From Candidatus Levyibacteriota bacterium (lineage in GTDB: Bacteria; Patescibacteriota; Microgenomatia; Levybacterales; UBA12049): a stretch of 64,000 nucleotides of DNA. The stretch spans positions 399,679 to 463,678 of the forward strand of contig JBEKQZ010000001.1 of NCBI GenBank assembly GCA_049519175.1, in the 5' to 3' direction. A program made the translations under genes and the position numbers. Each line of letters starts with the position of its first letter. Positions within the stretch are counted from its first letter, which is position 1. Of this stretch, positions 56,985-60,874 are shown in pieces. Below the pieces are notes generated by a model, which was given only the letters and a program-made list of their open reading frames with translations, was not told where the DNA came from and did not search any database.

Positions 56985-57359
56985 TTATTGTAAATTTGTT
57001 TGCTGATCATTGAAACTTTGGTTTACGTTATTCAAGTTGCTATTAAGATTATTTAAGTCCTGATCAGCCGCTTGCGTGTCCTGATTAATCGCGTTATCGC
57101 TCGTGTCTTTCACATTGATTTGATATGTCGATGGAATAGGCGTAATAGTCGGCGTTACTGTTGATTGATTATAGACTTGAATATTGGGAGTTGTTTTTTG
57201 TCCTTTATTGAAAAAAAGGAGATATCCCGACAACACTAAAACAATTACTATTATTACTATTGAAATTAACATCGCCAAAATTCTTCCCGTGCCAATTTTT
57301 GCCTGCGGAGCTTGTGGTAGAGGAGTAATCGGTTGTGGAGTTTCTGAACTATTTTCCAT
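56985..57359 (-). CDS. Small single-TM protein with an Asn/Gln-rich tail
   Basis: One TM helix 'ILAMLISIVIIVIVLVLSGYLLFF'. Confidence 0.35.
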   Translation of the reverse strand: MENSSETPQPITPLPQAPQAKIGTGRILAMLISIVIIVIVLVLSGYLLFFNKGQKTTPNIQVYNQSTVTPTITPIPSTYQINVKDTSDNAINQDTQAADQDLNNLNSNLNNVNQSFNDQQTNLQ

Positions 57360-57383
57360 AATAAAAAGTTTACTCCTTATGAA

Positions 57384-57425
57384 AAGTTTTTGTCAAGCGA
57401 ACAAATTACAATAATTTGCTATAAT
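57384..57425 (+). promoter_or_regulatory. tRNA-Leu promoter: extended -10 TGcTATAAT preceded by the conserved 17-nt motif AAAGTTTTTGTCAAGCG
   Basis: -10 at 57420-57425, 8 nt before the tRNA 5' end; the same 17-mer occurs at 47474-47490. Confidence 0.5.
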
Positions 57426-57433
57426 AGCCTTAA

Positions 57434-57517
57434 GCCCAGGTGGCGGAATTGGTAGACGCGCACGCTTCAGGTGCGTGTATTCGCAAGAATATGGGAGTTC
57501 GAGTCTCCCCCCGGGCA
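57434..57517 (+). tRNA. tRNA-Leu(CAG), class II
   Basis: GCCCAGGTGGCGGAATTGGTAGACGCG; anticodon stem-loop cacgc-ttCAGgt-gcgtg; variable arm tattcgcaagaatat; GAGTTCGAGTCTC. Confidence 0.8.
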
Positions 57518-57556
57518 CATTATATATACACTTAGATTGAAAAGATAGGAGCCTAG

Positions 57557-58210
57557 ATGAAATGGACAACTAGTCTTGCGTATAGCGTAGGACTAATCGT
57601 TACCGACGGTAATCTCTCAATAGACGGAAGACACATAAGCTTGACTTCTAAGGACTTGGATCAGATTACAACATTTGCCTCCTTATTAAATTTGAAAAAT
57701 AAAATTGGAAGAAAGAAGAGTTCATACAATCCTAAGGGCATTTATTATCAGCTACAATTCGGGAATGTGAAGTTTTATCGTTTTTTACTATCAATCGGAA
57801 TAACTCCCAACAAAACTAAGAGTTTAGGAGACATAGATATTCCACCTAAATATTTCGCAGACTTCTTACGGGGACATTTAGACGGTGATGGATTTACATA
57901 TTCTTATTGGGATAAAAGATGGAAAAATAGTTTTATGCTCTACACAGGTTTTATTTCAGCAAGTAAGGATCATATTTCATGGCTACAAGATCAAATAGAG
58001 AAAACTTTTCTAATAGAAGGCGTTATTAACTTCAATCGAACAGTTTATAGATTAATGTACGCAAAAAAGAGCTCTTTGATACTACTTAATAAACTTTATT
58101 ACAAAGACGATTTGCCCTGTCTTAAAAGAAAGAGATTTAAAATCGCGCAATGTTTAGCTATAATAAGAAGACGTGCGGATATGCTGGAACTGGTAGACAG
58201 GCATGCTTGA
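57557..58210 (+). CDS. LAGLIDADG homing endonuclease (two-motif, single-chain); the C-terminal 12 codons lie inside the tRNA-Leu(GAG) gene
   Basis: 'LAYSVGLIVTDGNLSIDG' and 'FLRGHLDGDGFTYS' LAGLIDADG blocks; stop TGA = nt 35-37 of the downstream tRNA anticodon loop. Confidence 0.7.
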   Translation: MKWTTSLAYSVGLIVTDGNLSIDGRHISLTSKDLDQITTFASLLNLKNKIGRKKSSYNPKGIYYQLQFGNVKFYRFLLSIGITPNKTKSLGDIDIPPKYFADFLRGHLDGDGFTYSYWDKRWKNSFMLYTGFISASKDHISWLQDQIEKTFLIEGVINFNRTVYRLMYAKKSSLILLNKLYYKDDLPCLKRKRFKIAQCLAIIRRRADMLELVDRHA

Positions 58211-58258
58211 GGTGCATGTGCTATAAAAAGCGTGGAGGTTCGAGTCCTCTTATCCGCA
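58175..58258 (+). tRNA. tRNA-Leu(GAG), class II
   Basis: GCGGATATGCTGGAACTGGTAGACAG; anticodon stem-loop catgc-ttGAGgt-gcatg; variable arm; GAGGTTCGAGTCCTC. Confidence 0.75.
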
Positions 58259-58396
58259 CAAGACCGGATATCCTCGTTGTCAAATTTCCAGAACTTGATA
58301 CACTTTAGCCAGCTTACTGAAATAGACAGGTAGGGTTCAAAACGAAATTGGTCTTTTCAAGAGTGGTATAATAGTGCTATAAACAATTTTTGAAAT

Positions 58397-59173
58397 ATGG
58401 ATATCCTAACTACAATAATAATATTTATAATTGTTGTACTGATAGTTTTATTTTTCTTGAGCGTTAGAATCGTTCAGGAATATGACAGGGGAGTAATTTT
58501 CCGCCTGGGAAGATACACGGGAGTCAGAGGACCTGGACTCATTCTTCTAATTCCTCTAATTGAAACTATGATTAAGGTTACACTTCGAACCATCACCATG
58601 GCAATTCCTTCGCAAAAAATAATCACAAAAGATAATGTTTCGATAGACATTGCTGCCGTTGCCTATTATCATATTGTGGATCCGAAAAAATCCGTAATTG
58701 CGGTTGAAAACGTTTACGAAGCGGTAAACCAAATCAGCCAGACAACGGTCCGAAACGTAGTTGGACAATTCGTTTTGGACCAACTTTTGTCGAAGACAGC
58801 CGATATCAATACCAAAATAAAAAATGTTATTGACGCCCACACCGAACCATGGGGTGTTAAAGTAACGGCAGTGGAAATAAAAGACATCACTCTTCCGGAT
58901 AATATGCAAAGAGCCATGGCTAAAGAAGCGGAAGCTGAAAGAGAGAGGAGAGCAAAAATTGTGGCAGCAGAAGGAGAATTCCAGGCAGCGCAAAAACTTG
59001 GTCAGGCAGCGGAATTAATTGCAAAACACCCTGTTGCGCTTCAGCTTAGAACCCTGCAAACAATGGCTGAAATCGCCACCGAGAAAAATTCTACCATTAT
59101 TTTTCCGGCGCAGTTTATGACCACTGTTCAAGAAGCAATCAAAACAATCGGTAAAGACCTCATAAGCAAATAG
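58397..59173 (+). CDS. SPFH/band-7 (stomatin/slipin-like) membrane protein
   Basis: N-terminal TM; '[15 protein letters not shown]'; band-7 core; C-terminal 'AEAEAER' coiled-coil. Confidence 0.8.
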
Positions 59174-59605: not shown

Positions 59606-59650
59606 GCGGGCGTAGTTCACCGGTAGAACGTCTCCTTGCCAAGGAGAGGA
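59606..59650 (+). pseudogene. Truncated tRNA-Gly(GCC) 5' fragment (acceptor, D-arm and anticodon arm only)
   Basis: GCGGGCGTAGTTCACCGGTAGAACGTCTCCTTGCCAAGGAGAGG, about 85% identical to the 5' 45 nt of the downstream tRNA-Gly; no T-arm. Confidence 0.55.
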
Positions 59651-59689: not shown

Positions 59690-59761
59690 GCGGGTGTAGT
59701 TCAGTGGTAGAATGCTTCCTTGCCAAGGAAGAGGTCAGCGGTTCGAACCCGCCCACCCGCT
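59690..59761 (+). tRNA. tRNA-Gly(GCC)
   Basis: GCGGGTGTAGTTCAGTGGTAGAATGCTTCCTTGCCAAGGAAG; GGTTCGAACCCGCC. Confidence 0.85.
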
Positions 59762-59863
59762 CAAATAAATGAGTGTTAATAAATAATACTTACGTGTTCC
59801 GACATATTCGGACAATGCAATACAAGGTTTCTTGTGCGTAAGAACTCAAAAGGATGAGTTCTT

Positions 59864-60874
59864 ATGTTACAGGGGAAAAAATTAGAAATAGCGTACCACG
59901 ATTATATTGTCAATTATTCTGCTGAAGCAAATTTAGCTCCTAGTACAGTGGCTAATAAGAATGATGTCCTCAAACGATTGATTGCTTTTCTTGATGGTCG
60001 ACCGTTTAATCTTAATACGTGCCGAGAGTTTATTGCCTATATGTGTAGCCACGGGCGGAAAGCTCCAAATAGCCGCATGGATCTAGTACGGGTTTTAAGA
60101 GCTTTCGTTAATTTTCTTAATAATAATGACTACACAAAAGACAATTTTGCTCACCAGATAGTAAAGCCAAAAATACCCAAAAGAGAATTTGATTATATCG
60201 ATCCTGAAATTGTTGAAAAGATTATTTTAGCGGGAACAGAATATGGTGTAATGGATAATTCAAGGAATCGTGCAATAAAAGATGAAATGCGGGCAGGTTT
60301 ACGATTCATTCTTCGAACAGGGCTGAGGATAAACGAGCTTATTACGCTTAAAGGTAGCGACTTGAACATTTATGATAATCCCCCCACCTTTTGGGTATTA
60401 AGCAAAGGCGGCAACCGTGAACTTCTTCCCCTGCCCAAAGATATGCTTGAAGAGTTAAAAAAGCGTCTAAACTATGACAGACTTTTCAGTGTTACCAGAG
60501 AGACATGTAATTTTGTGCTTAAAAGAGGAGCAAGGAAATTAGGGATAACAACAAAGCTGACAAATCATAGCTTAAGGCATATTTTCGCCTCCAACCTTGT
60601 TAAAAACGGTGTTCCTATCCAAATGGTATCCCGCCTCATGCGTCATAGCAGTGTTGACATTACGGATAAAACGTATACGCATCTTAACGTTAATGATCTA
60701 GCCTTAGTATTGAACAGCAAACAAAAAATTATCGTAGGTGGACTGACTGTTGATGAAGTATTTGATAACGTAGAGAGTGCAATTCTTCAGACTGGCATAA
60801 AGGAAGATAAACGTTTTGCGCTGGATATAAAAGTTGAAAACAATATGTTGCAAATAAAAGTGCAAGTCCAGTGA
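59864..60874 (+). CDS. Tyrosine-type site-specific integrase/recombinase
   Basis: C-terminal 'HSLRHIFASNL...RLMRHSSVDITDKTYTHL' (R…HxxR…Y catalytic tetrad). Confidence 0.85.
   Translation: MLQGKKLEIAYHDYIVNYSAEANLAPSTVANKNDVLKRLIAFLDGRPFNLNTCREFIAYMCSHGRKAPNSRMDLVRVLRAFVNFLNNNDYTKDNFAHQIVKPKIPKREFDYIDPEIVEKIILAGTEYGVMDNSRNRAIKDEMRAGLRFILRTGLRINELITLKGSDLNIYDNPPTFWVLSKGGNRELLPLPKDMLEELKKRLNYDRLFSVTRETCNFVLKRGARKLGITTKLTNHSLRHIFASNLVKNGVPIQMVSRLMRHSSVDITDKTYTHLNVNDLALVLNSKQKIIVGGLTVDEVFDNVESAILQTGIKEDKRFALDIKVENNMLQIKVQVQ

Follow-up and report, generated by a model that had tools for sequence, protein, structure and literature searches.

A putative free-standing LAGLIDADG homing endonuclease family associated with the 5' side of tRNA-Leu(GAG) in Microgenomates bacteria

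The endonuclease gene and its two tRNA neighbours

A 64,000-nt stretch of a Candidatus Levyibacteriota contig (hereafter the window; overlaps and coordinates given for this locus refer to its + strand) contains a free-standing open reading frame (ORF) that lies between the genes for tRNA-Leu(CAG) and tRNA-Leu(GAG). As described in a first-pass annotation made from the letters alone, this ORF carries two LAGLIDADG motifs (GLIVTDG and LRGHLDGDG) and encodes a putative homing endonuclease (Table 1). Its last 12 codons (ADMLELVDRHA and the stop codon) are also nucleotides 1-36 of the downstream tRNA; the overlap that had been claimed was confirmed, at 36 nt. The downstream tRNA is intact according to both ARAGORN and the Rfam tRNA covariance model, which also accepted the upstream tRNA. 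Some details of the earlier description had to be corrected: the flanking gap, given as 40 nt, is 38 nt on the upstream side, where it includes the AGGAG sequence, and there is no gap at all on the downstream side; the TGA stop codon does lie in the anticodon loop, but at linear nucleotides 34-36 (canonical U33-G34-A35) and not at 35-37; and tRNA-Leu(GAG) ends at 58259 instead of 58258.

When the whole window was scanned with the default Rfam gathering scores, 14 of the 15 tRNAs were found and tRNA-Leu(CAG) was missed. This tRNA reached 47.9 bits with the same model when its region alone was searched, and the Rfam alignment flagged one non-standard pair in its acceptor stem.

Table 1. Features of the endonuclease locus in the window.
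Feature	Position	Strand	Basis or remark
Extended -10-like box TGCTATAAT, 8 nt 5' of tRNA-Leu(CAG)	57417..57425	+	Sequence reading; putative function
tRNA-Leu(CAG)	57434..57518	+	ARAGORN; Rfam tRNA model, 47.9 bits (gathering score 29)
Possible decayed stub remnant (mimic of tRNA-Leu(GAG) positions 18-36)	57521..57543	+	Reads TATATATACACTTAGATTGAAAA
Shine-Dalgarno sequence AGGAG, 5 nt 5' of ATG	57547..57551	+	Sequence reading; common to close relatives L003 and L088
LAGLIDADG homing endonuclease gene (putative), 217 aa, monomeric two-motif, ATG start	57557..58210	+	ORF list, homologues, fold, pN/pS
LAGLIDADG motif 1, YSVGLIVTDG	57581..57610	+	Catalytic Asp17 at 57605-57607
LAGLIDADG motif 2, FLRGHLDGDG	57863..57892	+	Catalytic Asp111 at 57887-57889
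Promoter-like site for tRNA-Leu(GAG), within endonuclease 3' end	58136..58164	+	TTTAAA, 17-nt spacer, TATAAT
tRNA-Leu(GAG), intact	58175..58259	+	ARAGORN; Rfam tRNA model, 49.7 bits (gathering score 29)
TGA stop codon, U33-G34-A35 of the tRNA-Leu(GAG) anticodon loop	58208..58210	+	Sequence reading

The encoded protein was found to consist of the LAGLIDADG core alone, ending directly after the second LAGLIDADG domain, with no additional helix-turn-helix domain. None of the NCBIfam models matched it; many of its homologues carry a precomputed PF14528 match, and its best sequence match in the PDB was I-Tsp061I (2dch; E-value of 2.4e-5). An AlphaFold2 model built from 77 homologues, with a predicted local distance difference test score (pLDDT) of 92.7 and a predicted template modelling score of 0.88, exhibited two alpha-beta-beta-alpha-beta-beta-alpha halves arranged as a pseudo-dimeric fold. 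The pLDDT fell below 50 solely at residues 209-217, which correspond to the tRNA-encoded part, a tail predicted by this model to be disordered. A Foldseek search against the PDB again placed I-Tsp061I at the top (E-value of 1.7e-11; template modelling scores of 0.70/0.74; 18% sequence identity), followed by I-AniI, intein endonuclease domains, I-SceI, I-DmoI, and WhiA. Asp17 and Gly18, as well as D109-G110-D111-G112, were invariant in the 77 sequences, so that the two acidic residues, whose conservation the first-pass annotation had proposed to check, are present throughout.

Compared with its homologue at locus L003, the gene exhibited 0.039 non-synonymous (pN) and 0.449 synonymous (pS) differences per site, i.e., a pN/pS ratio of about 0.09, and it is under strong purifying selection. 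Because of this low ratio and of the 951 homologues described below, the ORF can be regarded as a real gene and not as a chance reading frame. From its sequence, we infer endonuclease activity and homing.

Association of the family with tRNA-Leu(GAG) and distribution of gene-free sites

A total of 951 homologues was identified in the protein database (E-value ≤ 1e-3), the best of which was 92% identical to the protein of the window. Identity ranged from 57 to 92% among the top 120 homologues, nearly all of which were 205-225 aa long, and the hosts that could be named were Levy-, Davies-, Woese-, and Curtissbacteria, i.e., Microgenomates of the Candidate Phyla Radiation (CPR). A profile search of 1.84 billion cluster representatives returned 253 clusters (defined at 50% identity) with E-values ≤ 1e-30. 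The endonuclease family is a large and uncharacterised one in CPR Microgenomates, and our full-text literature search did not turn up any description of it.

To describe the surroundings of the gene, 86 distinct gene-bearing loci were gathered from genomes and metagenomes. In 82 of these, tRNA-Leu(GAG) began 1-28 nt (mostly 3 nt) past the residue aligned to position 205, meaning that the arrangement seen in the window is a family-wide trait and not a one-off. Among the other four loci, two were on contigs that end too early to be judged, and two (L099 and L101, of the same sequence) possessed a chimeric pseudo-tRNA. The upstream neighbour was more variable: tRNA-Leu(CAG) was present at 35 loci and other tRNAs at nine, while no tRNA was found within 600 nt at 26 loci. 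The setting reported by the first-pass annotation, a tandem pair of tRNA-Leu genes, thus holds for the downstream tRNA-Leu(GAG), which is the fixed partner since the upstream neighbour varies, but not for tRNA-Leu(CAG). A member of a sister subfamily, P0137 (locus L181, 1850-2544; GCA_021733325.1), which matched the family profile with an E-value of 3.6e-63, abuts tRNA-Leu(UAG) instead, with an overlap of 52 nt; the family has therefore settled on at least two of the tRNA-Leu isoacceptor genes. Translated tRNA-Leu sequence was also found at the ends of several cluster representatives that are more distant.

The tRNA-Leu(GAG)-like sequence that follows the endonuclease gene at about 5625-5710 in L099 and about 780-865 in L101 was rejected by ARAGORN. 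Its 5' acceptor strand (ACCGGGA) does not pair with its 3' strand, and its T stem is mismatched. Its 5' part is of the donor type, with an acceptor strand resembling GCCGGGATGC (here ACCGGGATGC), its 3' end reads CTCCTCTCTTCGAC, and the junction lies in the T loop. This pseudo-tRNA looks like a chimera of two tRNA alleles and could have been left by a conversion tract that ended inside the tRNA.

The C-terminal tails of the homologues corresponded to the 5' half of the tRNA translated in all three frames. In frame 1, the tail reads ...ADMLELVDRHA and the stop codon is the anticodon-loop TGA; in frame 2, it reads ...SRDAGTGRQARLRF and continues onward; in frame 3, it stops at the TAG of the D-loop sequence GGTAGAC. 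The overlap was of 36 nt at 34 of the 82 loci, of another length between 10 and 48 nt at 23, and of zero at six, and in 19 loci the gene had its own stop codon before the tRNA. Because all three frames are used and the tail is predicted to be disordered, neither the tail nor the exact position of the stop codon seems to be selected, so that termination in the anticodon loop is a by-product of the frame, which is set by the junction. Most members lack a stop codon of their own and run on into the tRNA. As an idea only, RNase P cutting at the 5' end of the tRNA could strip the stop codon from endonuclease mRNAs at the 57 overlapping loci out of the 82, and this removal could limit endonuclease expression. 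Gene callers also extended several of these ORFs into tRNAs: the N-termini of P0099, P0104, and P0118 were called through the upstream tRNA-Leu (N-terminal 'AEVAELVDAHVSEACGSNPLEVRVLSPAQ'), and the C-termini of P0084 and P0104 were called right through the downstream tRNA, a systematic annotation artefact.

To estimate how often the site is occupied, we used an endonuclease-blind sample, in which one genome per species was scanned with the neighbouring hypothetical-protein family (80 loci). At 46 of these loci, tRNA-Leu(CAG) and tRNA-Leu(GAG) were co-oriented within 3 kb. Only three of the 46 carried the gene; the other 43 were gene-free, and in 30 of them the two tRNAs were separated by just 2-65 nt. 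The empty sites that the first-pass annotation had suggested looking for are, therefore, the majority state, which supports its view of a free-standing homing endonuclease gene that has invaded, and may target, a tRNA-Leu locus. The ancestral and commonest state is tRNA-Leu(CAG), a spacer of 2-65 nt with an extended -10 box, and tRNA-Leu(GAG), and the endonuclease gene has been inserted sporadically, as a segment of about 650 nt, 5' of the latter. The remaining 13 gene-free loci had spacers of 96-1847 nt, most of them with unrelated inserts and one with a masked run of N; when these 13 enlarged spacers were searched with the family profile (hmmsearch --max) for endonuclease remnants, nothing was found below an E-value of 0.9. 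Inserts in the CAG-GAG spacers (L018, L063, L034, L082, L017, L029, and L030) included an opposite-strand MsrB gene, an ORF resembling REP-associated tyrosine transposases, and a membrane protein, and a repeated 'TGGTAGGCGGGCAyGCAGTGTTCAGAAC' element was observed in the same spacers.

The history of the gene was compared with that of its hosts in one clear case, involving the window, the gene-bearing locus L003, and the empty site L048; other pairs were saturated. Between the window and L003, the endonucleases were 92% identical while the flanking genes shared 47-65% amino-acid identity, and the pS of the gene (0.449) was lower than that of five flanking genes (0.67-0.87, saturated). Moreover, for the two flanking genes shared by all three loci, the gene-free L048 was nearer to the window (72-77% amino-acid identity) than was L003 (56-60%). 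Since the pS is lower and the nearer relative is gene-free, the endonuclease copies of the window and L003 diverged later than their hosts did, or at least later than this region did, a pattern that fits horizontal spread of the gene, as far as these sequences can tell. The tRNA-Leu(GAG) genes of the window and L003 were also identical (85/85 nt, versus 67/85 for tRNA-Leu(CAG)); this identity was considered as evidence of co-conversion and set aside, since the gene-free L048 allele differs from that of the window by only 3 nt. A phage origin was rejected because no relative was found in 2.9 million viral contigs.

The 3' side of tRNA-Leu(GAG) showed a different kind of variation. Variants of the same species (≥ 99.8% nucleotide identity) diverged exactly at the tRNA 3' end (window 58256-58400; L170 1-785; L179 1-1724; L168 1196-2082): one strain carried an island with a 154-aa ORF, a PLDc_2 gene, and others, and another strain carried an additional gene of 193 aa. 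At L003, the neighbour that abuts this tRNA is a serine recombinase. Given these islands and this recombinase, the 3' end of tRNA-Leu(GAG) is also an integration hotspot. Further downstream in the window, at 59606-59648, the native tRNA-Gly(GCC) is reduced to its first ~43 nt; in the variant L177, this tRNA is intact, 24 nt after tRNA-Phe. About 41 nt beyond the tRNA-Gly stub lies a complete tRNA-Gly(GCC) of different sequence (59690-59762), followed by a tyrosine integrase gene (59864-60874). This arrangement, the second case of a stub with a replacement tRNA in the window, suggests an element that brings both an integrase and a tRNA-Gly of its own.

Such neighbours raise the question of whether the ORF is carried by a larger integrative element with attachment sites in tRNA genes, and is not an autonomous homing gene. 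The integrase beside the replaced tRNA-Gly, the serine recombinase of L003, and the islands of the strain variants all point in that direction; however, these recombinase elements are located downstream of the tRNA, differ from one strain to another, and are missing from most gene-bearing loci; none of the recombinases accompanies the gene consistently, and comparison with empty sites delimits an ORF-sized segment between the two tRNAs only. We consider this explanation hardly credible.

A putative tRNA promoter within the gene and a tRNA-like stub in front of it

In gene-free loci, a TAnnAT box was present in 24 of the 27 spacers of 14-70 nt, preceded by TGn in 18 of the 24, and it mostly ended 7-13 nt 5' of tRNA-Leu(GAG). 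The geometry of these boxes equals that of the box TGCTATAAT in front of tRNA-Leu(CAG) in the window. More generally, tRNA genes in these genomes (window 57417-57433; empty-site spacers L007-L086) had an extended -10 box (TGnTAnAAT) at a distance of only 7-13 nt from the mature 5' end, and their tRNAs may be transcribed with almost no leader.

In the window, a consensus scan identified TTTAAA (58136, codons F-K) and, after a 17-nt spacer, TATAAT (58159-58164, codons x-I-I), with the tRNA +1 at 58175. In the gene-bearing loci, an invariant DNA sequence, TT(A/G)nnTATAAT, occupied the last-helix codons L-x-I-I, the TATAAT ending 10 nt 5' of the tRNA in 28 loci. The first Ile codon was ATA in all of the 46 distinct genes, versus 35% of the Ile codons elsewhere in those genes, and the codon before it ended in T in 45 of the 46, while encoding G, S, D, A, or N. 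Because ATA is invariant and the preceding codon keeps its final T despite the varied amino acid, TATAAT is conserved at the DNA level. tRNA-Leu(GAG) is probably transcribed, judging from these codons, from a promoter embedded in the endonuclease gene.

A second tRNA-related sequence was observed at the other end of the gene. Just 5' of the start codon, most family members have a stub with the consensus TTGGTATACGCTATnnnCTTGAG, which mimics the part of tRNA-Leu(GAG) that runs from G18 in the D loop to G36 in the anticodon. Allowing at most two mismatches and counting matches outside tRNAs, this strict pattern was found in 43 of the 90 gene-bearing loci, with degenerate forms in more, and in one of the 77 gene-free loci; this single match (L061) was rejected as a true stub, being a chance match within an msrB ORF. 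The pattern was never found inside the real tRNAs of these loci. The stub is 21 nt long, versus 20 nt for the same segment in all of the 107 real tRNAs, and it differed from the resident tRNA in 37 loci out of 37. Some loci, such as L089 (GGGCGAGTGGTGAAATGGTATACGCTATAAACTTGAG), retain the entire 5' half. When 3' tRNA remnants were looked for downstream of the gene-bearing loci, none was found.

The tRNA homology ended right after the anticodon. In the main clade, it was followed 5-6 nt later by a -10-like box (TGCTACAAT, TGATACAAT, TGTGATAAAAT), and the start codon lay 6-9 nt after that box, a distance that suggests leaderless endonuclease mRNAs. A decayed stub and a newly arisen AGGAG characterise the window, L003, and L088. 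Two other roles were considered for the stub and rejected: a -35 element, since, given a -10 box 5-6 nt downstream of the stub, positions -35 to -30 read ATACGC, which is not -35-like; and a hairpin, since the GTATA/TATAC dyad was present in some copies only.

The stub may instead be an uncleavable target mimic that acts as an operator on the gene's own promoter. This hypothesis, drawn from sequence, is consistent with how well the stub is conserved, with the additional nucleotide, and with the constant position over the promoter; the phage endonuclease I-TevI represses its own promoter in a comparable way. The first nine nucleotides of the stub (GGTATACGC) were observed in 17 of the 43 gene-free tRNA alleles and in four of the 64 resident tRNAs, a comparison confounded by taxon sampling, and their rarity in resident tRNAs is only a hint with regard to immunity or target mimicry.

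Both the stub and the new 5' half end after anticodon nucleotide 36. Group I introns of bacterial tRNAs are known to occur at this position, and the closest solved relative of the protein, I-Tsp061I, is intron-encoded; these points recall the alternative offered by the first-pass annotation, a group I intron remnant. Such an intron would once have split the anticodon loop of tRNA-Leu and carried the endonuclease gene, and its ribozyme would since have been lost. However, no group I or group II intron model of Rfam matched the window at 57300-58450 with an E-value ≤ 10, and none reached the gathering score in five related loci (L001, L089, L092, L149, and L181). Moreover, there is no room for a ribozyme, since the distance from the stub to the start codon is about 5-20 nt and the ORF directly adjoins the tRNA. 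Both tRNAs are intact and contiguous without splicing, and empty sites show a plain spacer. An intron remnant is, therefore, very improbable.

A candidate homing cassette and its closest analogues

We consider it likely that the family is a free-standing, monomeric, two-motif LAGLIDADG homing cassette tied to the 5' side of tRNA-Leu(GAG), where it replaces the tRNA promoter and 5' half. The formal layout would be a stub ending at G36, the endonuclease gene, the promoter with a new 5' half that also ends at G36, and the 3' half, so that, in formal terms, position 36/37 of the tRNA-Leu(GAG) anticodon loop would be the site of the cassette. The tRNA would remain functional thanks to the promoter and 5' half that the cassette brings as replacements, the old 5' half being left behind as the stub, and the cassette would thereby be harmless without an intron. 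The enzyme would be expected, from the sequences compared here, to cut endonuclease-free tRNA-Leu(GAG) alleles in or near the segment from the D loop to the anticodon, and donor-templated repair would then copy the cassette, usually together with the whole tRNA, into the recipient. In the clade of the window, the stub would have decayed and a Shine-Dalgarno site would have taken the place of the leaderless promoter arrangement.

Several observations weigh against this interpretation. The protein of the window scored 21.8 bits with the Pfam model LAGLIDADG_3, just below the cut-off of 22.5 (E-value of 2.2e-4), and over residues 8-81 only. Its stub is barely recognisable, as the match between 57521-57543 and TTGGTATACGCTATnnnCTTGAG is weak and not significant alone. 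In the family as a whole, the stub is 1 nt longer than the real tRNA segments and more conserved than a relic would be; because of this extra nucleotide and excess conservation, its origin as a displaced 5' half is a formal reading. The resident tRNA keeps an intact D-loop-to-anticodon segment and, if this is the target, the immunity of gene-bearing alleles is unexplained. Distances between endonucleases were weakly correlated with those between either of the two tRNAs (406 pairs; rho of 0.16 and 0.23), a comparison that is saturated and has no power. Near-isogenic pairs with and without the gene were sought and none was found, flank identity being at most about 70% (best about 65-70%), and the insertion boundaries are for this reason deduced from family-wide patterns. 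Finally, a gene-free allele was not found in the species of the window: among 14 contigs (≥ 99.8% identity), all those that reach the site carry the gene, several contigs break inside it, and the gene looks fixed in this species.

Some of these observations could also be explained if the protein were a domesticated LAGLIDADG protein. Like WhiA, it would then have ceased to home and would regulate the adjacent tRNA-Leu(GAG) through DNA binding, with the stub or the tRNA gene as conceivable binding sites; it would be inherited vertically, with many losses. In favour of this are the WhiA structures among the fold matches, fixation of the gene in all same-species contigs, and a conserved DNA motif over its promoter region, and the lack of degenerate copies in the 13 enlarged spacers is unusual for a purely selfish gene cycling through decay. 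The protein itself does not resemble such a regulator: both catalytic Asp residues are invariant, whereas WhiA lacks them, and no helix-turn-helix domain has been added to the 217-aa LAGLIDADG core, the tail being disordered tRNA-encoded sequence according to the model. Its distribution also argues against vertical inheritance, as the gene was present in only three of the 46 sampled loci, its pS was below that of the flanking genes while a nearer relative was gene-free, and a sister subfamily is located on a different tRNA-Leu gene. Domestication thus appears unlikely.

A fuller version of the homing cassette can be formulated, which we regard as possible but put forward tentatively. The cassette would be harmless without an intron or intein by inserting into the anticodon loop of an essential tRNA gene, carrying the new promoter and 5' half within its own C-terminal codons, and keeping a 1-nt-longer uncleavable mimic as an operator; it would replace tRNA-Leu alleles and spread them between CPR lineages by co-conversion, with sister subfamilies on other isoacceptors.

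The closest described analogue, by comparison of layouts, appears to be the mitochondrial mORFs, which are LAGLIDADG or GIY-YIG ORFs found in atp6, atp9, cox2, and nad3 of Allomyces, Glomus, Rhizopus, and Mortierella (PMC3630166). As in the present family, they are free-standing endonuclease ORFs inserted in a host gene without an intron, which carry a replacement gene end so that function is kept; the native end is displaced beside the ORF as a stub, as it would be here; some have no stop codon of their own and are in phase with host sequence, and the replaced part can derive from another lineage (PMC3630166). The copies of the tRNA on each side of the ORF, an intact one downstream and a displaced stub upstream, correspond to this mORF type. 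However, instead of a mitochondrial protein gene, the host here is a tRNA gene of a bacterial chromosome; what is replaced is the 5' half with the promoter, written in the C-terminal codons of the endonuclease, in a mirror-image layout; and the stub, unlike a fresh native copy, is shared in conserved form by the family and exceeds the real segment by 1 nt.

Among tRNA genes, the closest functional analogue would be SegB of phage T4, a free-standing GIY-YIG gene located in a phage tRNA cluster, which shows intronless homing, like the Seg/Mob enzymes (PMC2330249). SegB likewise lies among tRNA genes, with relatives lacking the gene at the same place; its target contains a conserved tRNA motif, and it spreads together with neighbouring tRNA genes (PMC2330249). 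It differs in being a GIY-YIG enzyme of a phage genome that spreads in mixed infections, whereas the present family encodes LAGLIDADG proteins in bacterial chromosomes, and the gene described here physically overlaps the tRNA and holds its promoter.

With regard to the protein, I-Tsp061I (PDB 2dch) shares the monomeric two-motif LAGLIDADG fold of the LAGLIDADG_3-like kind. CPR genomes are rich in LAGLIDADG genes, which are located in rRNA insertions, and the survey describing them mentions tRNA 0 times (PMC11270868). Both I-Tsp061I and such genes of archaea and CPR bacteria sit inside rRNA introns or insertion sequences, whereas the genes described here lie beside a tRNA. Group I introns of bacterial tRNAs (tRNA-Leu(UAA) and others) share the formal insertion point in the anticodon loop; in the present family, by contrast, a ribozyme is lacking, and the tRNA is contiguous and does not have to be spliced.

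Self-splicing introns and inteins are the known ways for homing genes to sit harmlessly in essential genes. If the mechanism proposed above is true, partial replacement of the target gene would be a third harmless mode, here acting on a bacterial tRNA with capture of its promoter. In the literature that we found, partial target replacement is described for mitochondrial protein genes (PMC3630166); what appears to be new here is that a candidate cassette of this kind, with a free-standing homing endonuclease gene and an embedded promoter, partially replaces a bacterial tRNA gene. For this family of 253 clusters, the likely target, a tRNA gene segment, can be guessed from sequence, which makes the enzymes easy to test and possible meganuclease scaffolds. 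As gene callers extend these ORFs through tRNAs at both ends, their annotations should be read with caution. Finally, our results suggest that selfish elements mediate a horizontal exchange of tRNA genes in CPR bacteria, which bears on how tRNA diversity in these organisms is interpreted.

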